From the NCBI GenBank assembly GCA_951406725.2, contig OX597824.1, positions 75,950,001 to 76,014,000 of the forward strand: a stretch of DNA of 64,000 bases. The letters are read 5' to 3'. The DNA comes from Octopus vulgaris. Taxonomy: Eukaryota. This document shows, one piece after another, positions 1 through 50,777 of this stretch (position 1 is the first letter of the stretch; each line of letters opens with the position of its first letter). The notes under the pieces are model-generated. The model searched no databases. It saw nothing but the letters and a program-made list of their open reading frames with translations, and had not been told where the DNA came from. The translations under genes and the position numbers were made by a program.

Positions 1-957
1 TGTTAATTCCTTGTTAGCACAATTCATTAGCATTTATTAATTACTTGAATTCATTTTTCCATCATTTACAAATGAAATGATGTTGCAAAATCTTATTTTC
101 TTTTCCTATAAATTTGTGAAAACTTGTTAAAGGAATCTGTAGTTTCTACAACGTAGTTTGCCTTCAGTTCTTGGTGGGGTTGTATAGGGGCCCGGTTGTG
201 ACATACGGTATGGCTTGGGCATTTTAAACTTTGATGAAGCTCGTCCTTCTTCAACCCTGACTTCAGTTGAGTAAAAATGTGTGTTTCGGTTAATGTTTGA
301 TGGAACTGTTAGTTTTTGGTTAGATGTCTTGTCTGATTGTAATGCCATAACTATTCATAGTTCAATTGTCTAACCTCAGACAAGTTATCTATAACACAAC
401 CAATTGCTTGGGTAGGAGGTCAATAAAATAATTTATCACTAATGTACTAGTGGCTATCAAATAGAAAGTATGGATCTTCATATGTACAAACTGATCTTTT
501 GCTTAATGTTACACATCAGTACAAGGTGTAATGTGGCTAAAAATATCACAACTTGACCAAAGAAAGGAATGCAATCTCATTCTCATTGAAGCCAGCTAGA
601 TGAATACATCATTTGTTGCAAAAGATTGGTCTGGAACCCAAACAACTGATGAAAGCTGTTAGGGAGACAGCCATGGCAGCAAAGACTGGCACAAAGTGGT
701 TATGTTTGATAAGAGACCACAGATGGTACTCTCAGAGGCCTTGGTTTTCATTGGACAAGGTTGACCATACATCTATACTTATATGCACAGGACCTGCGCA
801 AGATTGTTTTGAGGAAGACAGGCAGTTCGTCATGCATGCAAGTCTCCCCTCTCTCTATGCTACTTATGTTTAACCAAGGGAAATGCTGCTGATTTTTTCA
901 GTTTTTTTTCAGTTCAATTTTTATTGGCTGAAAAAGCAAAAGCAAGTCCATGTAGGG

Positions 958-1337
958 GCACAGGGAGTTATGTACAGGGAGGGTGGTCATACAAAGAGTT
1001 CAGGCCATTTCTGGTCAAGAGAGACTTTGTACCGAGCGGTCGTCGGCATCTTCACTCTCTCGTCTGGCAGCTTATTCCACGGATCCGCAACCCAGACGGA
1101 GAAAGCCCCTCTACTTCGATTGAGATGAAATCGTCGAAGATAGAGCTTTTCGGAGTGACCCCGCATCCCACGCTCTGGAGTAGGGGTGAAGAACAGCTCT
1201 TTTGAGAGGTTACACTTTCCGCTTATGATGTTGGGAGCGAGAATGAGATCACCATGGTGTCGTCGTTTTTTGAGAGAATAAAGGCCGAGCGTCTTCAGCC
1301 TTTCCTCATAAGACAAATGAAGAAAGGCTGAAGACAC
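958..1337 (-). mobile_element. CR1-clade LINE 3' fragment (ORF2 C-terminus)
   Basis: ORF 987-1337 reads LSYEERLKTLGLYSLKKRR..GDLI..RGHSEKL..FSVWVADPWNKLP, the typical CR1 ORF2 C-terminal motifs. Confidence 0.85.
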
Positions 1338-1696
1338 TTGACCTTTATTCTCTCGAAAACTTTGGGGTGATACAGCTTAGCACCAGTGTTGTCACAATCA
1401 TTACTGCCGGTGTATAAAGATCTTCAACAAATATTGCAAACTATCTTGCCTGACTCCCAAGCAGTTTTGTCAATCCATGGCAATGGATTGATACTTAATT
1501 GTTGGCCCTGGAAAGATGAAAGGCAAGGTTAATCTCAGTAGGATTTGAACTCAGAATATAAAGAATTGAACCAACTGGCACAGGATGTTTAGCCAGCATT
1601 CTAACAACTGCAAATTTGATGCTGGTAGTAGCAGCTGAATCACCTACGTAGAGATTCCCTTGTTGGCTTAACATGTAGTATATTTTGCATCCAAGT

Positions 1697-1919
1697 ACCC
1701 TTTACCAGTCATATCAGGCCCTGGAATATTCTACTTGTTTTATGCTCAAACCAACCAGATCAGGCCTCTCATGCTTATATATCCTTCAATGTCATTCTAA
1801 AAATAAACAGTTACATCATTGAAATCTTGAAGCCACGGGATAACGTGTGATTAATCAAAAGCAACGCGAATAAATAAGCATTACGTTTGATAGAACAATC
1901 TGTATACTGGAAGGGTTAA
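1697..1919. mobile_element. piggyBac-like MITE family copy
   Basis: Shares the core gtcattctaaaaataaacagtt..catcat with the 16823 copy and ends ..GGAAGGG|TTAA. Confidence 0.7.
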
Positions 1920-3093
1920 ATTATGATCCATTGCATATTTAAGTTCTCTAAAGATGAAATTTCTAGTGATTTGATTGCAGCCTAATGTTTTTGTGCAGTA
2001 CATTAAGTTGCTTGTTTCAGTTAGAGTTACATGGGAATTGTTTGCTTTTATTGACTATTGGATTTTCAGTATGTTTATTTATTCTTTCCTTACATTGTTT
2101 CCTTCGTGTGTGTTTACACAATGGGCTGGCTACCTTGTTTTATATATCGTCTACTTAACAATTGTTGTTGTTGTTGTGTCTATTCGTTTTTGCTTGTTTG
2201 TCTTGTTCACATGAATGTCTCATTTGAGAGTTTTCATTGAGAACTTCTTCGTTTGTATAATAAATGTAAATTCAAGTATTTTAATAATAATTGATTCTTC
2301 TGTAACCTATGGAAATCGGGGATAAATGAAACATTAAGGCTGATGACGTTAGAATAATTTGGTTAATGAATATATTACGGAATCTTTTCCATGTTTAATG
2401 CATTTTATTTTAATTCATTTTATTTTAATTCATTTATTATTCATATTATTTATAATTTGATTTTTTTTTTTCAAACAAGGAGAATAATATTGTAAGTTGA
2501 TTGCAGAGTATAAAATGTAAATTGATGTGATTTAATTAATAATGAAATTAAGATTCTTTAAAAAAAAAAAAATGTCTGTTGTATCTTGTAAATAAGCTGA
2601 TGAATTGTTTGAAAAAGTTCTTTGTATTGAAAATTAATTTGTTATTGGGAGTTTGTTGAATACTGAATTATGGTTAGCTTTATACTTTAATGTTTCCTAA
2701 CCTGGCAAACCTCCTCAGCATCGTTATCATCATCGTTTCTATGCCTACTTTTCCCCCCATTCTGGTATGGGTTGGATGGAACTTTCTTGTCAGTGTAATT
2801 GACTTAATCCCTTTGTCCTTGTTTGTCCCCTTATGTTTAGCCCCTTGTGGGCAATAAAGAACTATATATATATATATGTATATCGTCATCATCACCATCG
2901 TTTAACGTCCATCTTCCATGCATGAGTAGGATGGTTGGCAAGAGCTGGCCAAGTAGAAAAACTACCGTACGCTACTGTGTCTGTTCTGGCAGGGATTTTG
3001 TGGCTGGATGCCCTTCCTAATACCAACCATAAATACATATTTACGTAAACATATAAATATAAATTTACATACACATAAATAAATAAAAAAATT

Positions 3094-3152
<59 letters not shown>

Positions 3153-3195
3153 GTTTACATACACACAAATAAATACACATTTTGGATAATGTCAT

Positions 3196-3613
3196 TACTC
3201 TTTACTCTTTACTCTTTTACTTGTTTCAGTCATTTGACTGCGGCCATGCTGGAGCACCGCCTTTTAGTCGAGCAAATCGACCCCGGGACTTATTCTTTGT
3301 AAGCCCAGTACTTATTCTATCGGTCTCTTTTGCCGAACTGCTAAGTGACGGGGACGTAAACACACCAGCATTGGTTGTCAAACAATGCTAGGGGGACAAA
3401 CACAGACGCACAAACATATACACACACACTTATATATATATACATATATACGACAGGCTTCTTTCAGTTTCCGTCTACCAAATCCACTCACAAGGCATTG
3501 GTTGGCCCGGGGCTATAGCAGAAGACACTTGCCCAAGATGCCACGCAGTGGGACTGAACCTGGAACCATGTGGCTGGTTAGCAAGCTACTTACCACACAG
3601 CCACTCCTGCGCC
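3196..3613 (-). mobile_element. tRNA-derived SINE family A, full length
   Basis: On the minus strand: GGCGCAGGAGTGGCTGTGTGG (A box), GGTTCAGTCCC (B box), CORE-like ttgggcaagtgtctt, internal TA/TG microsatellite, (AAAGAGT)n tail. Confidence 0.9.
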
Positions 3614-4010
3614 ACTCATTGAATCATTATTCCCCAAAAGAAAACCAAACAACAACAAAAAAAAAAAAACAATTGCCACAGTAGTCAAAGTCATGTGTAT
3701 AAATAACAAAGGCAACAAATTAGCTGTGATTTTGCAAATTAGCCTGCAGACTCATTTGTTGAGTCATTCTCCTTTTATCAGCCTTGTTGACTGATAAATG
3801 AGTGTGACTGAACCTTGTTATCAGCTGATCCTAGTTGATAGCATGGTTCATCTCATAACAGTATAATATATAGGCAACAAACAACATGTAAACTCAGCAA
3901 TTGCAACTAGTCTAACATGGTGAAAGTGAAACTGCTCAGGCATGACTGCGGTTAAGGATCTTGCTCTAGGATCATGTGCTATCAGGCTCAGTTCCACTGT
4001 ATGGTATTTT

Positions 4011-4503
4011 GGTATTTCGTCTGCCGTTACGTTCTGAGTTCAAATTCCGCCGAGGTCAACTTTGCCTTTCATCCTTTCGGGGTCGATAAATTAAGTACTA
4101 CTTACGCACTGGGGTCGATGTAATCGACTTAATACCTATGTCTGCCCTTGTTTGTCCCCTCTGTGTTTATACCCCCTTGTGGGTAGTAAAGAAATAGGTA
4201 TTTTGTGGGTAAGGTTCTTCTACTATAAACTGTGGCCAATCAGTACTTCTTAGGGAATTTGGCTAATCAAAACTGTGTGCAAACCTGTTATATAGCGAGC
4301 TGGTAGAACCGTTAGCTAGGTGAAATGCGTAGCCATATTTCGTCTGTCGTTACGTTCCGAGTTCAAATTCCGCCAAGGTCGACTTTGCCTTTCATCCTTT
4401 CGGGGTCGATAAATTAAGTACCAGTTACGCACTGGGATCGATGTAATCGACTTAATCCCTTAGTCTGTCCTTGTTTGTCCCCGCTGTGTGTAGTAAAGAA
4501 ATA
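4011..4503 (+). mobile_element. Two family B SINE copies (4011-4196, 4295-4503) nested in an older family A copy (about 3935-4780)
   Basis: Nin-type core in both copies. The first is flanked by ggtattttg duplications. Confidence 0.85.
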
Positions 4504-5449
4504 TATATATTGTTGTATTTGGAGATGGTCATGTTGCCAATTTAGTCAATATATATATGTCAGAGTGTCTTAGTTTCGTGTTTGTTCTTCCCTGGCACTT
4601 GACAGCTGGTGTTGGTTTATTTATGACCCAGTAATTTAACTGTTCAAAAGTGTTCAATAGAATATGTACCAGTTTTAAAAAGTTGTTACTGGGGTCTAGA
4701 TTTGTTTGACTAAACATTACAGGGTGGGACCACAACATGACTGCAAGCCTGTGATTGAAACAAGTTAAAGTTAAAAGTAGATGTGATTGGAGATGAATGA
4801 TTCAACTGCATTCAGCATTATGTGTTATGTTCCTCTCTTTGTGTGTGTATGTGTGTGTGAAAGAGAGAGAATTAGTGAGGCTAATAACATAGAAATTAAC
4901 ACAGCTAGGCATTTGGAAGGTGATGGAGATGGTAGAGAAAATAATGTGAATTGATGCTGATGCTGAATAATAGAATTGATGCTGATATTGTGTGAATGAG
5001 CAAGTGTTGAATTGCTGGTCAGAGTTCTACTAGAAATGGAGTTCAAGGCAGAAGACTGACTACCTATGGACAAAAGCAAAAGTGAAGGTTGTTGCTTCCT
5101 CAGTTTACCAGAAATAGCTGCAAATTCTTGAATTATTTAAATTCTAATTTTGACACAAGGCCAGCTGTTGATGTGGGCAAGAAGCACGTTGATTACATCC
5201 ACCATTGCATTGACTAGTACTTGCTTTATTGACACCGAAAAGACAAAAAGCAAAGTTAACCGAAGTAGCATTTGAACTCGGGATGCTTGCTACCTTGCTG
5301 TGGTGGGAACATTTTTTTGTTATTAATCGCATGCATTCTTCATTAGGGTTGATTGGGACCCAATCAATGCTGACAATTCCTTTCCTGCTGGAACTACCAA
5401 GCAGTTTATGGCATCTCTGTGTAATCTTTTGACCTGCCAGAAATAGCAA

Positions 5450-5796
5450 GCAGATCTTCAAACCACACTCCACAATATTTGGAAAATAAGCTATCAAAGG
5501 AATGCATCAGATAATGTCTGGAAATGATTCTTAGTGGTCACAAGAGGGCTCTCAATTTATAGATCTGCTTGTTCAGGGTTTGCAAGAACACCAGCAGCAG
5601 CAGCGTGTTGAGGAAGAAGTATGGCAGATCTTCAAACCACACTCCACAATATTTGGAAAATAAGCTATCAAAGGAATGCATTAGATAATGTCTGAAAATG
5701 ATTCTTAGTCACAACAAGAGGGCCCTAAATTTATAGGTCTGCTTGTTCAGGGTTTGCAAGAACAGTAGCAGTAGCAGCATGTTGAGGAAGAAGTAT
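5450..5796. repeat. Direct tandem duplication of about 176 bp
   Basis: gcagatcttcaaaccacactcc...gttgaggaagaagtatg occurs twice (5450 and 5626). Confidence 0.9.
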
Positions 5797-6895
5797 GTTA
5801 GATTAGGTAACCATGTTTCGCAAATGAAATAGGAAACGCAGCGTTGAGAAACTTGAAAGTATTCTTTTAGAGCTCGTTTCTTTTAATTAAACTCCACCAG
5901 CAATTGAAAAGATGCATGTTTGCATGATGACAATAGCACAGATGACAACAGTGATGATGAGGAAGATGGCATTGAGGATGATGATGACGATGATGTTCTT
6001 AGCTTAAGTGGCTGTGTTTTTGAAAATATACATCGGGTTTAACAAGACTTTGAAGGATATTCTACATACATTCTTGAAAACAAATATGCTTTTAGTTTTG
6101 ACTGATTTCTCCCCACCCCTCTCTCGCACACACATCTCCCCACTACCAACCATTACTCATCTATGTATTTTCTTTGCATTCACATTCTCATGTTTCAAGT
6201 AATATTTATCAAAACAATGATCTCCTTATAGCTTTGTCGTTTCATTTAATTTTTTAGTATTTTCATTTCATCTTAATATAATTTACTTCATGTATGTGTG
6301 TGAGCACGCGCGCACGCGCAGATAGATATGTAAGTATATATGATAAAAAAAAATTCTACAAAAATCCTACTGTACCATTTCAATTTGAATGAGAATTGAA
6401 CAGATTTTGTTTTTCTTTTTTTTTTATTTTCATATTTTATTCTTTTTTGGCAAAATCAAATCATCTAATGCAGTCTTTTACTTAAGATAAGATTCTCATC
6501 TTTTGACTTAAAAATATATTTGAGCAAACAATATTTTTTTTTCAAAGAATAGCTTCAAATAACACACATTTTTGAAAATTTAAGCTTAGGTTGTTTTTGA
6601 CTTTTTTTTATTTATTTTCTTACCCCTTCTCTTTCTCTTCCCCTTGCTTCTTCTAAGACTTAATCCATAACAATAATAGAGCATGGAATGATTCTTCGAA
6701 CACAATGTTGTTTGAAAATATGAATAATTTTTTCTTTTCTTTTTCCATATATATAATTTCCATGTAGTGGCACTTTTATTTCTTACTGAAAATTCTTCAA
6801 ATTTGCACTGTTTTTGTGTAAGACTGTATTGGTTAAATATGCATATGCAGGAGTATGTGCACACAATTGTGTGTATATCTCTCTACATATATATA

Positions 6896-6939
<44 letters not shown>

Positions 6940-7200
6940 CACTTACACACACTCGTGCACACCCATAAACACATGTGTGAGCACATAGGTGCAAAACAAG
7001 ATGGAAATATAGTCCCTTAATACCAAAGATTGAATAATAATGGTATTTTGTTTAAGCTGTAAAAACTTTGCAAACTGTTATTTAGAGTTTCATGTAACAG
7101 ATCATCAGACAATCATGACCCACTGATGATCTATTGTATGAAACTCTGCATTACAGTTTGTCGAGTCTACATGTACGAGGTGTAACTATGGCAGATAAAA

Positions 7201-7614
7201 GGCGGCGAGCTGGCAGAAACGCTAGCACGCCGGGCGAAATGCTTAGCGGTATTTCGTCTGCCGCTACATTCTGAGTTCAAATTCCGCCGAGGTCAACTTT
7301 GCCTTTCATCCTTTCGGGGTTGAGTAAATATGTACCAGTTACGCACTGGGGTTGATGTAATCAACTTAATCCATTTGTTTGTCCTTGTTTGTCCCCTCTG
7401 TGTTTAGCCCCTTGTGGGTAATAAAGAAATAGGTATTTCGTCTGCCGCTACATTCTGAGTTCAAATTCCGCCGAGGTCAACTTTGCCTTTCATCCTTTCA
7501 GGGTTGAGTAAATATGTACCAGTTACGCACTGGGGTTGATGTAATCAACTTAATCCATTTGTTTGTCCTTGTTTGTCCCCTCTATGTTTAGCCCCTTGTG
7601 GGTAGTAAAGAAAT
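7201..7614 (+). mobile_element. Family B SINE with tandemly duplicated 3' unit
   Basis: Head at 7201; the unit restarts at GGTATTTCGTCTGCC (about 7432). Approximately 22-bp imperfect TSD aggt(g/a)taactat(g/a)gcagataaa at 7178-7199 and 7615-7636. Confidence 0.9.
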
Positions 7615-7931
7615 AGGTATAACTATAGCAGATAAAGTACCAGACCCTTGTGAGTAATGTTATTTTTGTTGAGGAGAAGGGCAGGTTTTGGGCTTCATCA
7701 GTACCTACCTATCCTCTGGGTTAGAGAGAACACACTTTGCAATTAGTTTATTCATTTGAGTAGCCTTTTGAATATAAATATACAGTGGAACCCTGATTTA
7801 AGAATCTAATTCATTCCTGAAGGCTGTTTGTCACTTGAACTGCTCCTAGACCCAAACTATTTTTTCTGATGGAGACTCAAGAGAATCTAAAATGCTTGTA
7901 AACCAAAACTATTTTTCCCATTGGAAACCCA

Positions 7932-8308
7932 TTGGTCAAAAGCATTTCTTTTATGCTGTTTCAGTACACTTGCCAATCATTTTATATAGTTTTATCAGTT
8001 TATCAATCATTGGACTGTGGCCATGTAGATAGCATGACAAGTGTTTAAATCCGTTAGTGGATGCACTGTGTAATGGGAAATTGAAGCAGCAATATGGACT
8101 GAGTGAAAGTTAGACCGCAACTGAGACTCTCTTGCTGATGCTTCTAGCTTCTTGTCAGCCATTGTTCCTAGCTTGTGTGTTTGTTACTTGAGACACGTAC
8201 GTCATGCGTGAAGTTTTATGTTTAAAAAATTGTTCATAAACCACTTGTTCATATTGAGAAGCATTTGTAAATCAAGGTTGTGTGTGTGTATGTATGTATG
8301 TGTGTGTG

Positions 8309-8356
<48 letters not shown>

Positions 8357-8589
8357 GTTCAAATTTACAGAAAACAAAAGGCGGAGACAAGTGTAGGAAC
8401 AACAAGCAAGTGTATTAGTTTAACGCTTGGGAAGAATGGAAAAGTCTTTTACGGTTTGAACCTACTCTCTTCATCAGAAAGGATTAAGAGGTTAAAAAAA
8501 AAAAAAAGGAGAGAGAAAATAATGTGTTGAGATGAATGGTTCAACAGTGAGAGGCTGATGAATGAAAGATATATGTGCGTGTGCGTGCG

Positions 8590-8634
<45 letters not shown>

Positions 8635-8649
8635 GTATGTGTGTGTGTG

Positions 8650-8691
<42 letters not shown>

Positions 8692-9222
8692 TGTCCATGT
8701 GTAATTGTATTTGAATTATTGATAATTCAATTTTTTTTTGTCACTCCTTAATGATACACTTTCAATGCATAATTCTGATTAGTATATACATGCACACGTG
8801 CATACACATTCCCCCTCTATCTCTCCCCTTCTTACACTCCCACATGAATTTTTTTATTGTTTTCTTCATATGCTTCACCTGTATTTTCCTTGTCCTTTTA
8901 TTGTTGATATTTCCCCCTTTCATTCCTTTGGTGGTTTATTGACTTTTACAAAAGTGCATTTGTGTGGTCGACTTTTTCAAACGATCTGTAAGTGTTGCTG
9001 ATAGTAAGACATGTAGCCTCTTGTTTTCTTGCACCCAATTGACTGAAGAAGAATTGATCTGTTGATCCTATCAACTTTTGTCCTTCACTGGTCAAAAGTA
9101 CTTTTATGCTGTTTCAGTACACCTGTCAATTGTTTTATAGTTTTACCTATATCAATCATTGGACTGTTGCCATGTAGATAGCATGACAGTGTTCAAATCC
9201 ATCAATAGAAGCATAGTGTAAT
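7932..9222. repeat. Dispersed direct repeat of about 140 bp (7932-8075 and 9089-9222)
   Basis: tggtcaaaag..cttttatgctgtttcagtacac..atcaatcattggactgt.gccatgtagatagcatgaca. Confidence 0.75.
8955..8987 (+). CDS. Candidate 33-nt frame-preserving micro-exon
   Basis: Long upstream pyrimidine-rich tract, AAAG acceptor at 8951-8954, consensus donor GTAAGT at 8988-8993, length divisible by 3. The phase-2 frame reads AFVWSTFSND. Confidence 0.3.
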
Positions 9223-9256
9223 TAACTGATGGTTTCAAAGGGCTGAGCGTTCAAAT

Positions 9257-9575
9257 AGGTGCAGGCATGGCTGTGTAGTTAAGGAGTTGGTTTCCCAGTT
9301 ACATGGTTTTGGGTTCAGTCTCACTTTGTGTCACGTTGGGCAAGTGTCTTCTACTATATATTTCTTTACTACCCACAAGGGGCTAAACACAGAGGGGACA
9401 AACAAGGACAGACAAAGGGATTAAGTTGATTACATCGACCCAGTGCGAAACTGGTACTTTATTTATCGACTCCGAGAGGATGAAAGGCAAAGTTAACCTC
9501 GGCGGCTGTAGGTTGACCTAATCCCTGTGATTGGATTTGGTAGATGTAAACTAAAAAGAAGCCTGTCATAAATGT
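9257..9575. mobile_element. Family A SINE (+) interrupted by a family B SINE fragment (-, about 9361-9505)
   Basis: Head ggtgcaggcatggctgtgtag, then the reverse complement of the family B tail and core, after which family A resumes. Confidence 0.75.
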
Positions 9576-10539
9576 ACATGTGTGTTTGTTTCATTGCCTT
9601 GACATCACGTGATAGCCGTAAATGAGCTTCACTGTCATACAAGCAGTGTTGATTGTGTGCAGTTTTCTATGTAAACATGACTGGCCATGGGGGGGAAATG
9701 TTATCTTACTTGGAAACAGGTGAGGATTGGTGATAGGAAGGGCATAACAGATTCCATCTGACATGCAAGCCCAGAAAAATGGGCTTCAAAAATGGTGGGG
9801 CAGGGGAAAGATAATGATGAATAAATTATAGCTTGGAGAAAGCAAGAAGTCTTTAAGTGCTGTTCTTAATCATCATCATCCTTTTAATGTCCATTTTCCA
9901 GACGGGCATGGATTGGATGGCTCTTATGATCAACAAACATTTTCAGTAACAGTTAAATTTACTTTTATATAGTTTTCTTTTCTTTTTCTGTTTTTTTTTT
10001 TTTTTTTTTTTTAAACTCAAAAGTATGACCAATTCCATGCATCATTTTCACCATTCTTTTGGGCCAGACAAACCTTATTGAAGCAGTTTCTCTATGGCCG
10101 CAGGCCTTTCCTGTTGCCAGCTCTCATCTCATGGCAGATTGCAAATGATGACACCACTTGCATGGTTGATGACTAAATCAGCATGTCGCACACATGCACA
10201 CGCATATGTGCATGCATGCACACACACACACACACTTCTTACAGTTACATCTACCTATTCCACTCACAAGAAATTGGTTAGCTCAAGGCCATAGTTAAAG
10301 AAACTCTAGGCAGAGCTTGGCTCAGGGCTATACTTGAAGACAGTTGCCTTAGGTGTCATGCAATGGGATTGAACCTGAAACCACATGGTTGCAAAGTAAG
10401 CTGAACAACACAGCCAAGCTGGTCTGTGTTCTTTTATTAAAGTGTCAGCCTATCAATGCCACTCGTGTGTAAAAGCCACTTAAATCATTAATGATTGCCT
10501 CTTAATTAAATGCATTCAATTGTCGAAAGATTCTTTCTT

Positions 10540-10922
10540 TCTTTTTTCTTTTACTTGTTTCAGTCATTTGACTGCGGCCATGCTGGAGCACCGCCTTTAG
10601 TCAAGCAAATCGACCCCGGGACTTATTCTTTGTAAGCCCAGTACTTATTCTATCGGTCTCTTTTGCCGAACAGCTAAGTGACGGGGACGTAAACACACCA
10701 GCATCAGTTGTCAAGCAATGTTAGGGACACACACACACACACACACATTTACATATATACGACAGGCTTCTTTCAGTTTCCGTCTACCAAATCCACTCAC
10801 AAGGCATTGGTCGGCCTGGGGCTATAGCAGAAGACACTTGCCCAAGATGCCACGCAGTGGGACTGAACCCGCAGCCATGTGGTTGGTTAGCAAGCTACTT
10901 ACCACACAGCCACTCCTGCGCC
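10540..10922 (-). mobile_element. SINE family A
   Basis: Near-identical to 3196-3613. Confidence 0.9.
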
Positions 10923-11492
10923 TAATTACATAATTATTTTTATGCTTCCAATGGAAATAAGTTGGCAAAAACAGTCAATAAATACATTGTGAACTACTGT
11001 TTAATTCCAGTCTTAAGCAACATTATTGAAACGTATTTTATCACAGTTTTGTTTCTTGTAGTGCTGTTTGTTCTTGTTCTTGTTCCGTTTTGTGTCGTAT
11101 TTCATATCTTTTGCTGTTCATGTGAAAGAGAACCTGGTCTGCATTTGTTATGAGTGTAAATGAAATAATTCACGCACAATGATGGTAATAATAATAGATC
11201 TGCCTACTGGAACCTTGAGTGTTTGATAACGATATCTGTACTACTAGCTCTGCACTTAATACTTACTGAGCATTGTATATTTTTAAGTAGTCTTCATTTT
11301 GGTATTTTAAAACAAATAAATAAACAAAAAAAGTATTTAAAAATTATTTTTTATTATATCATTTAATGAATTTCTTTTAATTGTTTTAGTAATTTGTGGA
11401 ATATTAATGAAAAATATACCCTTTAAAATACACAAATTTTTTATGCTCTTATTACATTTTTATATATAGTTATTTTTCATATAAGGTTTTTG

Positions 11493-12236
11493 GGATCTTT
11501 ACCTTTTGACCGACAGATTTAGAAAATAATTTTTTGTAACTAAACACTTTCAAACTTCGTATACTGGTAGAATGTGTCATATAAAACATCTTTTACTCTT
11601 AGTGTTTTTGAGAAAAGTTTATGTTTACGAAGTTATTTCATTTTAAAGTTGTCGTATTTCGGTAATTTCAACCAATCAATGACGTGTATTCAGCTGAATA
11701 AAATCACTGCTGTTGTTTGTCAACAAGAACTTCCGGCGGTGTATATTTCGTTTGTCACTGTTATTTATGACATATTTCATCTCATTTACGTTTGTATGAA
11801 TAAACGAGTGTATCTGAAGCATGTTTACTTCATGACACCACCATAATCGTTTGTGCTTCATTTTTCATTTTTTTCCGTAACTCAAACCCTAACCCTAACA
11901 CTCTAGCCCTAACCCTAAAACCTTAAAGCTCAAACCAGTACAAATATGTGAACAATGTCATACATAACAGTGACAAACGAAATATGCACTGCCGATAGTT
12001 GTTGTTAACAAACAACGGCAGTAATTTTATTCAGCTGAATACACGTCATTGATTGGTTGAAATTACCGAAATACGACAACTTTAACACGAAATAACTTCG
12101 TAAATATAAACTTTTCTCAAAAACGCTAAGAGTAAAAGATATTTTATATGACACATTCTACCAGCATATGAAGTTTGAAAGTGTTTAGTTACAAAAAATT
12201 ATTTTCTAAATCTGCCGGTCAAAAAGGTAAAGATCC
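11493..12236. mobile_element. Long-TIR (foldback-like) MITE with 8-bp TSD
   Basis: Ends GGATCTTTACCTTTTGACCG...CGGTCAAAAAGGTAAAGATCC with about 270-bp imperfect inverted arms. TSD GGTTTTTG at 11485-11492 and 12237-12244. Central (AACCCT)-like repeats. Confidence 0.9.
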
Positions 12237-13817
12237 GGTTTTTGTTTTTTGGAGAGTAAAAAATTTAAGAAAAATAAGAATAAACTTCCATTATATATAT
12301 ATGGACATTTGTTTAAATTTGAGATACTCTTTATATTGCATTAGAAAACAGTCATGTCTTACTAAAATTGGATTCTATAACTTTGTTTTAGATTTATTAT
12401 TAAATTACTTTTTCCTTATTTATTTTTCCTAAATCCTTTTTCTGTATAAATCCAACTATTTATTTATTTTTTTGCATTCATGTGTTGTATATGTTTAATT
12501 CTATGGGGCAGCTTGAAAAAGGAGTAAATTACGAGTGACACTAAGTTTGTATAAATTATTATTGTCTTTTCTTTTCGTTACTGAAAAAAAAAAATACAAA
12601 ACAAAACAAAATGGAAAAAAAAAAACTAAAAGAATTTTTTCTTGACAAAAGTTTTTTTAAAAATTTCAAGTAGATGTTAGTAGAATTGCTGCTTGATGCA
12701 AATTTAGTATGAGTGTAGTGTGTGCATTTATGTGTGTATGTATATGTATATCTCTATGTATGTATATATTTATATACACACACATACAAACACACATGCA
12801 TACTGTATTTCTTCTTTCCACTATGCTGTTGTTTATTATATACTGCCCAGATTTTCTTCATGTCGTATAAAAAAATGAAATTTAAAAAAAGGGGAATTAA
12901 ATGTGCAATTTAAAGGACCTAATCTGTCTTTAGCTGTGTGGTGCTAAAGAGTATTTCGAACCATTTTCCTCTGTCTCTTTGTCAACTGTTGTTCTTTCCA
13001 ATATATATATATGTGTGTGTGAGTGTGTGTGTGTATATATATTTGGCTATTTGTTGTATTTGTTCAACCAATTGCTATGGTTGTCTCTCAATTTTATCCT
13101 TAAAACTTTAGCCATTGGTTTCGTCCACTGTTTCTCGTTAATGTGCTCTGCTAGCAACATCTATAAACGAAAATGTAGTCGTATTAGTAGTCATAGTAGT
13201 AGTAGAGTTGTGGGTAGGTAGTTACATGTTTTCAATTTAAAGAAAATAATTGCAGCTATGTACATTTTGTTCTTGTATTTTTTCTTTTGATTTTTCATTT
13301 TTTCCTTAAACAGAAGGATCACCATGTGCTTATCAAAGTACTCAAGTACCAGCTAGTAGGATAGAGTTAGAAAAACATACAGGGGAAAAAATTTCAATAT
13401 AAAGTTGATGTACATATACATAAACTTAGATTGACATTACTTTTTATCTTTTTGAAAGATGATGAATTAAATATCAGGCTATTAGCGCTGAGGCTGATAT
13501 AATTTATTTTTCAGTTCCAACACACCATAATCTTGGATCTGATCCATCTTCAAATTTATGCAGTTCAGTAATTTACATGTGTAATAGAAAGTAGTATCAT
13601 TTGTTATTTTGGTTTTGGATGTCAGCAAGTTAGTGTGGAAACCGTTCGGTTGTTGCTTGTCTTTCCACAAGATACTGGTATATATCCCTCATATTGTACA
13701 ATTCCATGTGGATAAAAGGACTTCTTGGGTATTTGGGATGGAATGCCTTTGATCATAAGTCTAGTCTATCAGAGTTGAAGGTGTGCCAAGTAGCCGTTGC
13801 TGCTGCTGCTGCTGCTG

Positions 13818-13857
<40 letters not shown>

Positions 13858-14707
13858 AACAACAAAGTAGTGAAAAATTGCATTCAATGTTAATATTATT
13901 TAGCAGTAACCTCATTGTGCTATTTAATTTCATTCTCCATAGGTTCCACGTAACAGCTACATATTCCACTTCTGTTGTCTTTTGTTACGCTTTGAATGTA
14001 TTTTTCTGAAAGCCAGAACCTGGAAATAGTAGTCACCTAGCAATGTGAAATGATAAACTCCGCACTAAGAAGTTACTATAATCTCTCTGAAGTGCCCCCA
14101 TTTAAAAAGGAGAAATTGTGTGTGCATGTATACACTTACATAAGTGAATGTTTACGTATGGCTGAGTGATTACCAAGCTTGCTTTGCAATCACATGGTCC
14201 CAGTGGTGACTCACTGTATGGTTACTTGTGCAAGTGTCTTTTACCACAGCCACTAGCAATGCCTTGCTAGTGAAATGTGGTCGCCGGATTCTTCACAGAT
14301 TATTATTTCAAGTTTCTTGTTGCCGATCTCTTGACAATTATGTAAATCAGAACATATCATTTCATATACATTGAGTGTACAGTAAAATTGAATAGCTTTA
14401 GTGGATGCTGCTTGGGTGACATGGAATTAACAAATGCATGGTTGAAAATGTAACTGTTTTTTTGAAGTGGGCATGCAAAATTAGGATAATTGATGGAGAG
14501 CAGTTTGTAGTTGCCATAAGCATTTACTTGTATATATGAAAGAAAATATATAGAGAAAATTGCATGCATATACCAAAAAAATCCCCCCCGAAAAGAACCT
14601 CCCCCCCAAATAACAGCACAAGGGAAATAGCTTGTGGCGATTCTCTTTAAAAAGCAGGGATGAAAAAAAAAAAGTTTTGCTAGATTTTGTTGTATTGGTG
14701 TTTGTAG

Positions 14708-14826
14708 ATTTTGCTGCTTCAATCAACTATTTGGAGAGACGGTTCTTGCATAAGAATTTTGAAGAATGTCTACAGTCAGCGATCAATTCTGAATGTTCAA
14801 AATTGTTTGGTTACCACAGGGCATAG
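14708..14826 (+). CDS. Candidate short terminal exon resembling the C-terminal half of a BEN domain
   Basis: Acceptor tttgtag|AT. The phase-1 frame reads DFAASINYLERRFLHKNFEECLQSAINSECSKLFGYHRA*, matching by eye the BEN pattern 'AI..YL...F....W..I..AINSKC'. No N-terminal BEN half was found in the window. Confidence 0.35.
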
Positions 14827-15589
14827 TGATAATGTTTTTTGTAATCATGTGGCATTACCTTATAATGCAATGCTTGTTTTCTTGTCTTCACTAGTCCTCC
14901 TCTCTGTATATATCCACACACTCTTTGTTTTGTTTTTTTTTCATATTAAACCGAAAAGTCGTAATTATTACTTTGTGTAGAACAGTTTAGAGTTTTGCAT
15001 AATTTTTTTCTCATGTAAGGCAATCAGATCTATGTTCCAAACCACAGTCTTGTTCAGTTGGCCTTTTTCTCAACTGTACACATTGGCGAATTGAGAAGAA
15101 ATCATTGTAAAATGTGATCACTACCTCTTCGTGTTATGTGATTGTTGAAGTCACTTGTTTAAGGTAACCAGTTAGTGTCTTTTTTCTTTGAAAAATATCT
15201 GACAAATGTCATTAAATTTGTTTGTTCTGTTGAGGATTGGTGTAGTAGTGTGGTGATTGATATGGGATTTCTCTATAAAACAGAGGTTACTGAAATGAGA
15301 TCTGTTCCTAAATGCTGGTGCTCCATTTACTGTTGCTCATATAATGCTGGTAGTCTCTTCTTGGTCTTTTATTTCCAAACATACTTAAAAGATACTGTAG
15401 TGTTCTCCAGATAGCAGTAATAACTTGAGCTGATGTTCTGGTGATGTTCAAGAACTCAGGGATCAGCAAACCTTTCTTCTCAGTTCTCTGTGTGCAGTTG
15501 ACCAAAATGTTGATTAAATGAAACCTCAATTTGGATACGTAACCACTGTATATCCCTGTATATACATACATACATAACTATTTTCTGCA

Positions 15590-15975
15590 TGCACTGTATT
15601 TTTCCAAAAGAAGTGTGTAGTGATGTAACTTGGGCATTGAATGTAGAGGATGTGCTAAGCTTGAAAAGAAATGTACACATGTTTTCCTTGGATGTGTAAT
15701 GTTAGTATGCATGACTGGTGGTTTACAAATGAGTTGAGAGAAAAATTAGGATTAAGTGGAATTGGTTGTAGTGCACAAGAGAGAAGACTGCACTGGTGCA
15801 GGCACGTAATGCCAATGGAAGATGACAATTGCATAAAGAAGTGTTAAGTGATTCAAGAAAAAAGTTCATGGAAAATATGGGAAGAACTGAAGGCTTATTT
15901 CAGAATTGTGGACCTTACGAAGGAGATGATGATGGACTACAACAAGTAGTAAGAAGTTGTGCTAGAGAAGGGCCG
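15590..15975 (+). mobile_element. Degenerate RTE-clade LINE 3' fragment
   Basis: Similar to 20640-21070, for example ttggatgtgtaat and caagagagaagactgcactgg. Confidence 0.6.
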
Positions 15976-16257
15976 TCTTACTCATGGAAGCATGGAGAAA
16001 ACTGAATTAAAAATGGTGATATTAATATGTACTCAAGATTGAATGGATCTTTCTATTTGACTATTTGAACTACATAAAGGACTAATTAAATGGTTTAAAG
16101 TGTGGCACTAATTAAAAATCTTATCGAGGTTCCAATAATTGACATGAACTATCAATCTTTTACCATCATTTTGCATGATTCTTTTGTGAGCATTAGTTAG
16201 GATGTGGTTGTTTGTTGAATTAATTTTTGTAATTTTATTGGTGTTGTTTTTAATTTT

Positions 16258-16329
<72 letters not shown>

Positions 16330-16822
16330 CTCTGTTTATTATTCATTGACTGTTACAAAAGATTTTGACATGATCTATGAAATATAGTCATGGGAATGGA
16401 CATTCTGAGCCACGACTGTTCCCTTAGGAATTAACTGTCCCTTTGATAAAGGAAGAGAGAATATGGTTTGCCATTATCTCAAAGCATACTTTATTGAGCA
16501 TTATTTTCTGGTAACTTAGTGGAGTTATTTCTGGGAAAATAATGTTTGAATATTTGGCCGCGATTTGAAACAAAACCACACACACACTCATGCACACGCA
16601 CATTAAATATTAGTCAACATAGTGATATTGTTGAAAGGGAATTCAGTTTGTAATTATGTTGGTCATGCAGGTGAAGCGCTTACATTGAATATCGATTCAC
16701 TATTTTGGTAACATTAGGAGGTTTTCCAAGTTTTGCAATTGGAATATTCTAATTAATCTAATTTTGTTCTATTTAAACAGTTCCTTGTAATCTACCTTAG
16801 TTCTAACCATCATTCTCCTTAA

Positions 16823-17046
16823 CCCCTTAGCATTTAAACTGGTCATACCCAGCCCAAATACTCTACCGGTTTTATATTCAAATCAACCAGAGTTAGCCTC
16901 TCCTACTTATCCTATGATATCATTCTAAAAATAAACAGTTGCATCATCAAAAATCTTGGAACCTTTGAGATAAATGCATGAGTAATTCAAAACGATGTGA
17001 ATAAATATGCATTATATTTGATGAAATAATCTGAATGCTAAAGGCT
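16823..17046. mobile_element. piggyBac-like MITE family copy (about 220 bp)
   Basis: TTAA|CCCCTTAGCATT...AATGCTAAAGG. Related copies at about 1697-1919, 22936-23148 and 24508-24718. Confidence 0.75.
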
Positions 17047-17112
17047 TTCAATGTCAAAAAATTATTTTATATAAATTGTTTTTAGAGCGTCCTCTATTTT
17101 TTTTTCTTTTTG

Positions 17113-17528
17113 AATCTCTCTTTTACTCTTTTACTTGTTTCAGTCATTTGACTGCGGCCACGCTGGAGCACTGCCTTTAGTCGAGCAAATCGACCCCGGG
17201 ACTTATTCTTTGTAAGCCCAGTACTTATTCTTTTGGTCTCTTTTGCCGAACCGCTAAGTGACGGGGACGTAAACACACCAGCATCAGTTGTCAAGCAATG
17301 CTAGGGAGACAAACACAAACACAGACACACAAACACATACACACACATACATATATACATATCTACGACAGGCTTCTTTCAGTTTCCATCTACCAAATCC
17401 GTTCACAAGGCATTGGTCAGCCCGGGGCTATAGCAGAAAACACTTGCCCAAGATGCCACGCAGTGGGACTGAACCCGCAACCATGTGGTTGGTTAGCAAG
17501 CTACTTACCACACAACCACTCCTGCGCC
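17113..17528 (-). mobile_element. SINE family A
   Basis: Near-identical to 3196-3613. Confidence 0.9.
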
Positions 17529-18025
17529 TATGTTCAAAATACTCTCATTTCAAAATTCTCTCATTTCCTCTCATTACTATATAGATAATCTTTCATTCAT
17601 TGTTTTTATTTCATACTCTACTACTACACACTCATTAGTCATCCCTTCTCACTTCATTTAATTCGATTTTAAGATTTTTAACCCATTGCTCTCAAATTAA
17701 GTTTCATCTTCATCAGCCCCGTGTAATCTAATGTTTTTCTGCGTTAGTATATTGATTGGCTTTTGTGTAGAAAGTAATGCAATTATTTAAACTTTGTAAA
17801 TGTATTTATGGCCTGCTTAATACTTATGAACATCATTACCGCTGCCTTGGAAACGTGATTTAGCTTCTAGCCGTGTGTGTGTGGATTTAGCTTGAATGGT
17901 TTCAATTTTGTTCTGATTGCGATAAAATATTTTTTTATACCAGAAAAAAAAAAATAACAGGCCTCATCTGTTTGCTGCTGTCCACAATTGCTGCCTTCCA
18001 AATTTTAAATAAATATTATATATAG

Positions 18026-18085
<60 letters not shown>

Positions 18086-18692
18086 TATACATACATATAC
18101 ACAAAGCCTTTGACTTGTTGCCATCTAAGGGTTTTTTTGCCCAATATTCTCACTTATTATTTGTAGTTTTATCAACTTCAACTTCCTCTGTAATATCTTG
18201 GCCAGCCCCATATCAAACTGTCCAACCCATGCCAGCATGGAGAATGGACATTAACTGATGATGATTATTATGATAATGATGATGATATATCAGTTCATCA
18301 GTGTTTTTGTTTTTGCAAGTTTCAGATTGTTCAAAGTAAATAATAAAGAAAACTGAATACACTTCATGTTATGATATTTTAATTTAGAAAGGAAAGTTTG
18401 TGAAAATGTCAGTTTGTGTGGTGATGATTTCTTTGGTGCTAGTTTGACTTGCTTTCATGTCTATCAACAGAGAAAAGCTCAGGCTTTTTTTTGCTTTTCC
18501 CCCTCACCCATATCAATTGTAGAAGTTTAAAGTTAAGAGACAGAGCTCTTTCTGCGTGGCCTAGATAAATTTCAGCAACAGGTTCTTAGCGATAGTTTGT
18601 TTCTGTCTATACGTATGGTCAGTTTCCTTGATCTTTTCTGACATATTTGTGTCAATCAAAAGAATCTTTTTACCCATTTAGCTGTCTTTCTT

Positions 18693-18723
<31 letters not shown>

Positions 18724-18896
18724 TGTTAATCCCAGTGCAGTTAATCTGGTAGAGAGCTGTTGGTTTGCCATTCAAGCTGCCTCATTCTTTATTTTAAATG
18801 TTAAATGATATTTGTCTGTACTTCTTCATTCAGTTTAGTTTTCCTTCCACCTGTTGCTGTATTTCGATCCGAATTTTTTTTTCTTCTCAATATCAG

Positions 18897-19926
18897 GTCC
18901 AAAGCCGATCGACGGAAGTTAAAAAAATACAGTGAGGATATACCTTCATGGTTGTCGACAGATTTCAAGAGTAACTTTCGGATGTCGTCTGTGACGTTTT
19001 GGAAAGTGTTCAGCTACCTGCGTACGTGTCCTGAAGCAATTGAGATGGCACGAGGGAGCCAACCAGAGACCTTGGAAAAAAGTTTGTTATCTGTTCTATG
19101 GTATATGGGTTCCCAAGATACTTTGTCAGAAATCTGTCAACGTTTTTCAATCAGTGAAGAGTCTTTCCTTAATCGCCGTAGTAAAATAGTGAAAGCTCTT
19201 CTTTCTAAGTCAAAAGAGAATCTCATACGATGGCCTGAGAAAGATGCTGACAAGCAGATTATAGCACAAGAATTTGAGACTCTGAGTAATTTAAAGAATG
19301 TTATTGGTGTTTTGGACACTACACACATTCAGGTGAAAGCTTTAGACAATGATAGGGAGAAGTTTTACAATAAAAACGGGTACTACTCGGTGAAGTTAAT
19401 TGCTGCCTGCCAGCGGGATATGAGGTTTATATTCTGTTCAACTGGACACGCTGGTCGTCTCCATGACTTTCAAACTCTCATTGATAGCCACCTTCTGGAG
19501 CGTGGTGCACACTTGTGCAACTCGCACCATTTGGTTGGTGACGCTGCCTTCCCTCTGTTCGATTGGTTGATCACACCTTACACCTCTGAGTCGAAAACAG
19601 ACGCTCAACAGTATTACAACAGTTGCTTGATGACTGTCCAGAAAGTCATTACGCGCGCCTTCGGCTTGCTACACGGACGGTTCCGCCGACTGAAGGTCAT
19701 TGAGTCTACGAATCTCAGCACCATTGTGGATATAATTCACTTAGCGTGTGTTCTACATAACTTCTGTATTGGCTGTGATGACATCGGTGAAGAGTACATG
19801 GTATACGAAGTAGAAGACGAAGGGGATGATTCCCTACCGGTGACCAACTTGCCCCCACTCCCCGACAGTGTCAAGATTAAGAGAGACATTATTTGCCGGA
19901 ATCTTTCTATTGGAAGACACCGTTAA
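18897..19926 (+). CDS. HARBI1: Terminal coding exon encoding a PIF/Harbinger transposase-derived (HARBI1/ALP1-family, DDE_Tnp_4) protein; probably domesticated and catalytically altered
   Basis: Uninterrupted frame of about 343 codons with Harbinger motifs: DFKSNFRMS..TF, HTH region (LLSVLWYMGSQ..LSEICQRFSIS), IRWP, IGVLDTTHI (D at 19315), FYNKNGYYS, GRLHD, LVGDAAFPL..WLITPY (D at 19540), YN..ITRAFGLLHGRFRRL, ACVLHNFCI, acidic tail, KRDII. Preceded by a polypyrimidine tract and acceptor (tttttttttcttctcaatatcag|G, phase 2). The symbol is a family-level label; orthology to vertebrate HARBI1 is not established. Confidence 0.9.
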
Positions 19927-20169: not shown

Positions 20170-21075
20170 AGTTATAGCTCAATTAAGAATGGAATTAGAT
20201 TAGATGAGCTACAGTTTGGTTTTGTGCCAGGGAGAGGTACCACTGATGCCATCTTTTTAGTAAGACAATTACAAGTGAATTATTTAAGTAAGCCACTAAA
20301 TTTGGCATTCATCCACTTGGAGAAACCTTTTGACAGAACCCTTCGTTCTGTGATCTGGTGCTCTCTGAGGAAGCTAGCTTGTGAGAGCCATACATGCCCT
20401 GCACTGGCATGTATATATTGGGGGTGCTGTTAGTAAGGTGAGATTTAGCATTGAGTACAGTGATATTCAATGAATCTGGAGTAGAAATAGAAAAGAAATT
20501 CTAGGTGTAGAAGCAAAATCTGGAATCAAAGGGCCTTAAGATTAACTTATCAAAAACCAAAGTTCTAGTTGCTAGGAAGATAAGTAGGACCCTATTCCCT
20601 CTCTTGGTAACAAAAGGTCTCTTTCAGAATAAAAGGAAGATTGTATGATGCCTGTGGGCAGCAGTGGTTGCTCCATGATAGTGAGATGTGGGCCCTGAAT
20701 GCAGAAGGTATGTGAAGTCTAGAGAAGAATGAAGCTAATATTACTCTGTTGGATGTGTAATATCTGTGTGCATGTATAACAAAGTGCAAATGTGTTGAGG
20801 GGGGAAAAAAAGGCATGAAAGGAGTTAGGTGTAACATACAAGAGAGAAAACTGCACTGGGTTGGCTGTGCGATGTGAATGGATGAGGACAGCTATATAAA
20901 GAAGTGCTGATCAGAACCTAAGTGATCAGCACTTAAAATGGATGTAACTTATGGAAGAGGGAGACCCTGAAAGACATTAGCTAAATAGTGAAGGTTTAGC
21001 TCAGGATGTTGAGCTTCATGTAGGAAATGACAAAAGGATGAAGATGATTGGCAATTCTCTGTGCTTGGGAAGACC
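20170..21075 (+). mobile_element. Degenerate RTE-clade LINE fragment (RT region to 3' end, internally deleted)
   Basis: LDELQFGFVPGRGTTDAIFLVRQLQ..AFIHLEKPFDR motif, followed by decayed RTE C-terminal motifs (GSEMW-like, LHW.G, GRGRP). Confidence 0.8.
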
Positions 21076-21637
21076 CTTTCGTCGCGTTGAAAGTCAGGTT
21101 ATAAAAGCATTATCCCAGTACCTATACATGCTGGGTCCTGCCCCTGCTTGTAGTCTTCCTCCATGAAGCATTCTTCACATCTCTTCTTCTTTTGGTACTC
21201 AGCAGCTGTAATCATTTGAGAGCCAACATTTGCCCCCTTTACACCTGAAACCACTTGCTATTAGTATCTGTTCCTTATTCTCATTAACATCCTCCCCCAC
21301 GCTATTTTCCACCATTCATCCCCTTTCTGTGCCTTTTGTTAACTCTACCTCTTCTCTGAGCTGCATCTTGGGCCTGCCATACCCCATCTTTTACACTTCT
21401 CATTTCTACTATCTTTCTCAGCACCCTCTTGTTATCTGTCACCAATGCCCCTCCCCCACTGTCACCCAGTTCACTGCAGCTACTCTCATGTACATCCGAC
21501 CACTACCTCTGTCACTGTACCCACCCTCTACACACTCTGTACATCATATCACTACTTTCTGAGGCTGTCACAAGTCCCCTCGTCCTCCTTGAGCCGCTTA
21601 TATCTCTCTCACCTTATCTCTGTATCATCAACCACAC

Positions 21638-21857
21638 CTTCACCCTTATTCATTACTCACTACATTCACCTTTATTCATTACTCACTACATTCACCTTTA
21701 TTCATTACTCACTACATTCACCTTTATTCATTACTCACTACATTCACCCTTATTCATTACTCATTACATTCACCCTTATTCATTACTCACTACATTCACC
21801 CTTATTCATTACTCACTACATTCACCCTTATTCATTACTCACTACATTCACCCTTAC
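21638..21857. repeat. 26-bp minisatellite (about 8 copies)
   Basis: Unit cattcacc(c/t)ttattcattactcacta. Confidence 0.9.
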
Positions 21858-50450: not shown

Positions 50451-50760
50451 ACAATGGAGAAGAAGCTGCTTTAAAAATCATTTGATTATATATACTATTC
50501 TGGTAATATACCCCCTGTAAAATTGGTTAAACTTTTGTAGTTGGAATTCTTTGATTGATTTGCTTGTTTGTTTTGTCTGCTTGTTTGCTTTGCATGGCTT
50601 TTGTTTTTGTTTGTTTTTTCGAGCAGGAATGATTTGTAGCGATTCACGGAGGAGCTCTGCCGTTATATAATGTATACGCTTTTTCTTCGAATTTCCAGCT
50701 CAAAATCCAGTATCCAACTATTAAAAGTGAAGCGAGAGAAGACAAGCAGTTCCTGTTGTA

Positions 50761-50777
50761 ATGGGGGACCAACTCTG
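50761..50777 (+). CDS. Candidate first coding segment (MGDQL..) of a downstream + strand gene
   Basis: ATG at 50761 followed by the donor TG|GTAAGC at 50777/50778. It lies in a unique, CpG-containing block downstream of long CT/GA tracts. No downstream exon was identified. Confidence 0.2.

Follow-up and report, generated by a model that had tools for sequence, protein, structure and literature searches.

Transposase Exon and Host Gene

The stretch of DNA analyzed here, called the window below, comprises 64,000 nucleotides of the Octopus vulgaris genome (contig OX597824.1, positions 75,950,001 to 76,014,000 of the forward strand). It contains an exon, E5a, which encodes a Harbinger transposase-derived domain and lies between exons of a TIF1/Bonus gene extending beyond the window on both sides. 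The E5a frame is free of stops for 342 codons (18898-19923) and ends with TAA at 19924-19926. At the stop frequency of the window, the expected odds of an open run of this length are about 4e-9 per start, and the frame is the longest of the 77 window frames of at least 90 amino acids. No Met precedes the FKSNFRM motif inside the exon (18897-19926), which is entered through a pyrimidine-rich phase-2 acceptor (ttttttcttctcaatatcag|G, cut at 18896/18897). An intronic Met at 18805 opens a 373-amino-acid read-through frame, the Logan gene call P0001, which was rejected as a gene start because its initial 31 residues are merely the translated polypyrimidine tract. The domain matched the Pfam family PF13359 (DDE_Tnp_4) over residues 139-288 with the full profile covered (E 8e-27; 94 bits against a cut-off of 24.8), identifying it as Harbinger transposase-derived, and every one of its look-alikes in the Atlas was likewise PF13359.

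Pfam domains around E5a follow one another on one strand in the order RING, B-box, and then PHD and bromodomain. The RING and B-box/coiled-coil exons were found by an open reading frame (ORF) scan of the 100 kb upstream, and the PHD/bromodomain exons are placed 48-62 kb downstream of E5a. The best-named relatives of the RING/B-box exons were TRIM33-like or TIF1-alpha proteins (among the best 120 of 869 matches), and TIF1 proteins of chiton, scallop, and amphioxus tile exons on both sides of E5a. Two exon chains could be built, one joining E1-E4 to E5a (6,015 nt, 2,004 amino acids) and the other joining E1-E4 to six downstream exons, E5b-E10 (6,105 nt, 2,034 amino acids); both have AG/GT sites, close in phase and contain no internal stop. 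Since both chains are open and in phase, and because the PHD-bromodomain exons stay intact downstream, E5a is, as predicted from these chains, an alternative last exon, placed within intron 4 of a TIF1 gene that is itself intact. This gene is probably the only TIF1 of the genome, given that the next-closest TRIM paralogue is just 36% identical over the B-boxes. Its E1 encodes around 1,006 amino acids, nearly all of them low-complexity Ser/Thr/Asn/Gln/Ala sequence ahead of the RING, and greatly exceeds its chiton and scallop counterparts in length.

The E4 donor (TG|GTAAGT) is phase-matched to the acceptor of E5a, and its TG together with the first G of E5a therefore makes a Trp codon, as in the proteins XP_014777370 and P0017. 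E4 itself has a strong in-frame acceptor and is open back to it, with no stop 5' of the annotated Met. The first-pass annotation of this DNA had described a clean long frame, the lack of a Met before FKSNFRM and a phase-2 acceptor, all of which stand, and had proposed a fusion between a host protein and the transposase with its N-terminus encoded upstream of the window, for which E4 of the TIF1 gene (-3220..-3001 relative to the window) is now the donor. The identity of the host as TIF1/Bonus, the status of the exon as an alternative last one and the absence of the transposase's own N-terminal segment are additional to it.

Directly 3' of E5a, the segment 20092-21040 resembles a decayed fragment which, from one of its motifs, we take to be a long interspersed nuclear element (LINE) reverse transcriptase; it contains the AATAAA at 20628. 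Clusters of AATAAA are denser from 22542 onward. A short tandem repeat at 21593-21980 is strongly C-skewed and open in three frames, and is not coding-like.

Splice Junction and Conservation in Coleoids

All the evidence for the E4-E5a junction is at the protein level. The junction appears in O. bimaculoides XP_014777370 (386 amino acids, a RefSeq gene model) and in the Logan protein P0017 (409 amino acids), a member of the same 90% cluster as Sepia pharaonis CAE1312692. We regard "putative nuclease HARBI1", the name given by RefSeq, as an automatic label. An ENA gene call, P0218, consists of E4 alone and ends in D-W-stop, as read-through into the GTAA donor gives, and the intron therefore seems to exist in the cuttlefish-cluster lineage too. 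The ENA contigs that carry P0218 and the transposase call P0014 are both 265,074 bp long and are probably one contig. With the same intron and linkage in this lineage, P0017 would therefore derive from a spliced molecule. Using the E4 peptide to look for longer proteins scored 0 of 17 candidates.

The E5a domain is identical to that of O. bimaculoides at 339/342 positions and to that of Sepia at 239/314, and is 76-77% identical to three Sepia-cluster proteins. The E4 peptide, including the residues before the octopus Met, is identical at 51/64 positions in P0017 and at 53/64 in P0218 (80-83%), and this conservation upstream of the annotated Met fits E4 being read from upstream. In a quick maximum-likelihood tree of 84 of the 158 aligned rows (mostly top matches of at least 280 amino acids), the five coleoid transposase rows formed one clade (Shimodaira-Hasegawa-like approximate likelihood ratio test, SH-aLRT, 100; stem 1.55), with 0.25-0.28 changes per site between octopus and the three cuttlefish-cluster rows. 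The tree was used for the coleoid clade only; it names no donor family, and known vertebrate HARBI1 was not among its rows. Judged from these branch lengths, the coleoid transposase appears to have changed rapidly after capture and then to have come under constraint, and E5a is read as an old, conserved domesticated transposase whose orthologues, even in distant species, are intact and occupy the corresponding locus. Octopus and cuttlefish lineages split around 270 million years (Myr) ago.

No PF13359 domain was found in TIF1 proteins among the best 120 of 869 matches (molluscs, amphioxus, hemichordates, and vertebrates); this search covered proteins of up to 2,000 amino acids, whereas both predicted isoforms are longer, and the matches listed included no cephalopod TIF1.

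Catalytic Residues, Fold, and N-Terminus

Residue columns of the transposase domain were compared with 155 non-orthologous homologues. The Asp-Asp-Glu (DDE) triad is intact in 122/155 of them, and E5a reads D-D-T, with T252 common to the 5/5 orthologous proteins examined (all D-D-T). Further substitutions (R248Q, K259H, and Q168I), located in columns that are 84-92% conserved, are common to Sepia, and D140, D190, and D215 are retained in all orthologues. The Asp codons at 19315 and 19540 and the Thr codon (ACG) at 19651 lie exactly where the first-pass annotation had placed them, and its reading of the latter as the lost catalytic Glu is borne out by the 131/155 homologues that carry Glu in this column.

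The predicted fold of the domain was confident throughout (predicted local distance difference test, pLDDT, 92.8; predicted template modeling score, pTM, 0.92). A sequence search of solved structures with the domain gave 0 matches, and Foldseek against the PDB returned nothing at E <= 0.001, with weak rows on Mos1, piggyBac, and ISCth4 transposases. From sequence and model, the domain appears to be a folded nuclease with likely loss of activity; the earlier label "nuclease-dead scaffold" is one that we infer.

Only 28 residues precede the FxxxFR motif in E5a, as compared to mostly 60-100 in full-length relatives. About 7/116 aligned homologue N-termini, judged by eye on proteins, resemble intron read-through stopping near the site of the E5a acceptor; these relatives hint that this acceptor is probably the Harbinger element's own intron acceptor. 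Element-supplied splice sites have been reported for other transposase captures (bioRxiv 10.1101/2020.05.07.082677; PMC2268245). The features described are collected in Table 1.

Table 1. Exons of the TIF1 gene and sites of the transposase exon. Plain coordinates are window positions; exon coordinates outside the window refer to contig C11, on the same strand as E5a.
Feature	Coordinates	Strand	Basis
E1, first half of RING	C11:75879902-75882920	+	ORF scan, Pfam
E2, RING end, B-box1, B-box2, coiled coil	C11:75932491-75933904	+	ORF scan, Pfam; coiled coil by homology only
E3, Q-rich	C11:75943430-75943761	+	Phase-guided search; start resembles P0021
E4	C11:75946780-75946999 (window -3220..-3001)	+	Upstream peptide of XP_014777370 / P0017
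21.9-kb intron after E4, in-window part	1..18896	+	Exon positions
Polypyrimidine tract and AG acceptor of E5a	18877..18896	+	Sequence; D-W-S-K junction in P0010 and P0017
E5a, predicted alternative terminal exon of TIF1 gene	18897..19926	+	Harbinger transposase domain, phase-2 entry, 342 codons and stop
D140, first catalytic Asp, kept	19315..19317	+	D in 138/155 homologues
D215, second catalytic Asp, kept	19540..19542	+	D in 147/155 homologues
T252 (ACG) at catalytic Glu position	19651..19653	+	E in 131/155 homologues, T in 1/155
First AATAAA past stop, candidate poly(A) signal only	20628..20633	+	Sequence
E5b, ordinary TIF1 exon, 79 nt, phase 2 in/0 out, VKRE	50699..50777	+	Predicted: splice phases, chiton TIF1 likeness
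PHD and bromodomain exons	C11:76017802-76032393, just past window	+	Pfam, mollusc/amphioxus TIF1 matches

Copy Number and Traces of a Mobile Element

Genome searches for copies and for Myb/SANT genes are to be read as lower bounds. A protein search of the 2.8-Gb genome retrieved the E5a locus and two paralogues, 33% and 31% identical, and a DNA search retrieved the E5a locus only, the 60 further matches being 33-65 nt of flanking simple repeat. The Harbinger family search returned 12 matches, among them several broken fragments that belong to a separate THAP-type clade. Within about 7 kb on either side of E5a, none of the 215 exact non-simple inverted 11-mer pairs had the matching 3-bp flanks of a terminal inverted repeat (TIR) with target-site duplication (TSD). 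Most of these pairs stem from one inverted pair of a dispersed repeat, and the longest inverted repeats flanking E5a are microsatellites. As two copies of a window-wide repeat, the inverted segments at about 17138-17522 and 26307-26695 were not accepted as TIRs. The 43 + 6 Myb/SANT matches in the genome are all located outside the TIF1 locus. E5a thus showed none of the marks of an active Harbinger element that were looked for, namely an intact catalytic triad, TIRs with TWA duplication, an adjacent Myb/SANT gene and multiple copies. The first-pass annotation had seen neither TIRs nor a Myb/SANT partner nearby, in agreement with these results; the matters of copy number and of orthologues, which it had raised, are answered by a single copy in both the protein and the DNA search and by the same Glu-to-Thr change in the O. 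bimaculoides and Sepia orthologues.

Fragments of other elements were noticed in or near the TIF1 gene. By their likeness, we take these tentatively to be parts of a retroelement C-terminus (window 45181-45609), a Helitron helicase (C11:75850001-75850396), a Tc1 transposase (C11:75860649-75861557) and a piggyBac transposase (76026693-76027016 on the same contig).

Other Harbinger-Derived Genes and Candidate Partners

A second domesticated Harbinger gene, with two exons, its own Met and a triad that has lost its three residues (A-A-Q), is located at C6:34916519-34921655 (L002, L020); it shares 88% identity with Argonauta hians GAB1598372 and falls into one clade with the ENA protein P0285. A third intact two-exon Harbinger-derived gene, with the triad N-D-E, lies on the minus strand at C25:13406929-13413664 (L003, L023) and belongs to a different clade, near the Lingula ALP1-like protein P0008. 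Neither the C6 nor the C25 paralogue presents a capture of the TIF1 type, each having its own upstream transposase exon and Met. A 439-amino-acid open frame at L062 (C3:6871128-6871583, minus strand), whose beginning is THAP-like and which contains a DDE_Tnp_4 domain in diverged form, is possibly domesticated. In other animals, Limulus P0157 (XP_022242643) and Trachymyrmex P0199 (XP_018351932) combine a Myb/SANT-like or THAP-like N-terminus with a Harbinger domain of broken triad (G-D-Q and D-D-K, respectively), and may be independent fusions or gene-model artefacts.

Intact Harbinger-type Myb/SANT exons (L030, L031, L068, L032/L033, and L050-L055) are candidate partners of the three domesticated nucleases. 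The C-termini of L030, L031, and L068 are charged helical segments of Harbinger type, and all are unlinked to the TIF1 locus. The candidates include Myb/SANT genes at C6:0.32 Mb, C3:1.30 Mb, C20:11.87 Mb and C26:2.4 Mb, together with six PF13873 genes. When the transposase domain was modeled in complex with C-terminal segments from these three (four chains, no alignments), the score was 0.13, the mark being 0.34, and speaks neither for nor against an interaction.

Interpretation and Alternative Explanations

TIF1 proteins do not themselves bind DNA. Those of tetrapods are targeted by KRAB zinc fingers and by some KRAB-transposase fusions and, to our knowledge, the way in which TIF1 is aimed in invertebrates is poorly known. 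The explanation that we favor, which holds about half of our confidence, is that a domesticated Harbinger exon is spliced to E4 of TIF1, that two proteins are likely made from the gene, and that a likely nuclease-dead fusion replaces the PHD-bromodomain part and would re-target TIF1 through a Myb/SANT partner. The course of events would have begun with a Harbinger element inserting into the TIF1 intron before the octopod-cuttlefish split, as orthology suggests. The E4 donor, which the junction proteins display in spliced form, would then have been captured by an acceptor probably supplied by the element itself, with the transposase losing its initial 40-60 residues or so; the catalytic Glu and nearby basic residues were substituted with the fold apparently retained, and activity was presumably lost. 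From what is known of the family, the RING/B-box/coiled-coil part would still dimerise, also with ordinary TIF1, and bring chromatin cofactors, whilst a Harbinger-type Myb/SANT protein from a separate gene would serve as docking partner of the transposase domain and provide DNA specificity, as in HARBI1-NAIF1, ALP1-ALP2, and HDP1-HDP2. The likely outcome would be sequence-directed repression without a KRAB adaptor; repression seems somewhat likelier than antagonism for the fusion.

The fusion would mean that the TIF1 gene itself captured a transposase, in a superfamily and an animal group for which we found no such fusion described, and that it has been retained since the divergence of octopus and cuttlefish. 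Current annotation hides it as a separate "HARBI1" gene. It would also offer an exon-specific handle on cephalopod chromatin control, E5a being removable without touching ordinary TIF1. A wider proposal, which we advance tentatively and regard as rather doubtful, is that coleoids evolved a KRAB-free aiming of a KAP1-type corepressor, where TIF1 fused to a dead Harbinger transposase would plug into domesticated Myb/SANT proteins and a splice choice would turn TIF1, a reader of histone marks, into a regulator guided by DNA sequence, within a small network of domesticated Harbinger proteins specific to coleoids.

Several observations weigh against the favored explanation. No retrieved protein record combined RING/B-box and transposase, either in the TIF1 search (up to 2,000 amino acids) or in the representative search, and the long fusion was absent from the best 150 matches of the latter, which had no size limit and whose longest match was 609 amino acids. 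The RefSeq product of O. bimaculoides, of 386 amino acids, starts inside E4, the E3 donor (GTTAGC) is non-consensus, and the E3-E4 link is predicted from phase only. With regard to the partner, it is the N-terminal half of the nuclease that, in the Harbinger element Ping, makes contact with the Myb protein (PMC7282668); the initial part of this half is missing in E5a and may include some of the Myb-binding region, and the Myb/SANT matches (43 + 6, lower bounds) include none linked to the TIF1 locus. With regard to repression, domesticated plant Harbinger pairs are anti-silencing, not silencing (PMC7282668, PMC9710019), the fusion is devoid of the PHD-bromodomain unit and of the VKRE SUMO-type motif, and the PHD-bromodomain of KAP1 recruits NuRD (according to a title cited in PMC10672805).

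The fusion might be made and act as an antagonist, heterodimerising with ordinary TIF1 or titrating its cofactors and so relieving silencing, as ALP1 does with PRC2 and HDP1 with transposon silencing. The omission of E5b-E10, including PHD, bromodomain and VKRE, would suit this role, as would the opposition of ALP1/ALP2 to PRC2 and the anti-silencing action of HDP1/HDP2 (PMC7282668, PMC9710019). However, mere truncation would not require a 342-amino-acid domain kept at 76% identity, and the SUMO site needed for repression by Drosophila Bonus is N-terminal (PMC10672805), so that the retained half of TIF1 may still repress; on balance we consider antagonism unlikely. Equally unlikely in our opinion is that E5a serves mainly or solely to make a short stand-alone protein of 386-409 amino acids, formed by the end of E4 and the transposase and driven by an internal promoter, in which case a HARBI1-like gene would lie within TIF1 and have one exon in common with it. 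The RefSeq model and P0017 do begin in E4, the Met of HMLQ/HMTR is present in both lineages, a short form of CSB-PGBD3 likewise arises from a cryptic promoter located one exon earlier (PMC2268245), and no full-length fusion protein was retrieved in the TIF1 and representative searches. This last argument is weakened by the 2,000-amino-acid limit and by the lack of any ordinary cephalopod TIF1 among the matches listed; besides, E4 has a strong in-frame acceptor and no stop ahead of the Met, every TIF1 pre-mRNA passes the E5a acceptor in frame, and both forms coexist in CSB.

An action on DNA that needs no partner, whether by binding old Harbinger ends through the helical N-terminal region or by weak nuclease or strand transfer with two Asp residues, seems to us quite improbable. 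It would agree with the retention of D140, D190, and D215 in all orthologues and of a well-predicted helical region (20-110), but the Glu, R248, and K259 are replaced in both lineages, and related element ends were found neither by the DNA search of the genome nor among the flanking inverted repeats. For the zebrafish Harbinger element, DNA binding has reportedly been shown for the Myb protein only. The Myb-like protein of this element binds the transposase and is needed for its nuclear entry (PMC9710019). Lastly, cephalopod introns are full of mobile-element fragments, and E5a could be no more than another transposon copy in an intron, with a frame that is open through youth or chance and splicing that is only noise. 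This is hardly credible and largely refuted by the single copy, the lack of TIR/TSD and of a partner ORF, and the Sepia orthologues that share the junction and the inactivating change.

Comparison with Known Systems

No published Harbinger-TIF1 fusion, in cephalopods or elsewhere, was found in a literature search of mostly open papers. An insect Bonus isoform with a different C-terminus reportedly exists, but literature searches aimed at it failed to find it. The word "TRIM" is absent from the main text of a survey of transposon-derived factors covering Octopus (PMC10027918), and "Harbinger" from the main text of a study on tetrapod KRAB-transposase fusions, whose supplementary fusion list may bear on novelty (bioRxiv 10.1101/2020.05.07.082677). 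In the latter fusions, as in the octopus, alternative splicing joins a transposase to a host regulatory module, and some of them repress via KAP1/TRIM28 (bioRxiv 10.1101/2020.05.07.082677). The KRAB domain thereby recruits a TIF1 protein, whereas in the octopus the TIF1 protein itself would be the fusion partner.

The ordinary octopus isoform, with its predicted RING, two B-boxes, coiled coil, PHD, and bromodomain, resembles Drosophila Bonus and mammalian TRIM24/28/33, and Bonus silences via SetDB1 and NuRD with a requirement for its N-terminal SUMO site (PMC10672805). Unlike octopus TIF1, the TIF1 proteins of other animals carry no transposase domain among the best 120 of 869 matches. On the transposase side, E5a is comparable to HARBI1-NAIF1, ALP1-ALP2, HDP1-HDP2, and insect PLG-MADF in being a single-copy conserved derivative of the Harbinger nuclease, often with a broken DDE; ALP1, for instance, lost two of the three residues (PMC9710019, PMC7282668). 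Domesticated Harbinger nucleases bind the C-terminal part of a Myb/SANT protein and join chromatin complexes (PMC7282668, PMC9710019). HARBI1, ALP1, HDP1, and PLG are stand-alone genes whose products reach the chromatin complex via the Myb partner, whereas the octopus domain would be covalently joined to a chromatin factor, with its own N-terminus missing and a partner that is putative only.

The closest parallel is CSB-PGBD3 of primates, where the gene of a chromatin regulator harbors a domesticated transposase in an intron and uses it as an alternative 3' terminal exon in place of the regulator's C-terminal half; the triad is altered there too (DND), the parental isoform persists alongside, and the preceding exon can give rise to a short form (PMC2268245). 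CSB-PGBD3 differs in deriving from piggyBac and having a SWI/SNF ATPase as host, in contrast with Harbinger and TIF1 here, and in being about 43 Myr old with TIRs and MER85 relatives (PMC2268245). No such TIRs or relatives were seen for E5a, and the octopus-cuttlefish split dates back roughly 270 Myr. The predicted fusion architecture of the octopus gene is that of CSB-PGBD3, and the role of its transposase domain is probably like that of HARBI1, ALP1, and HDP1.
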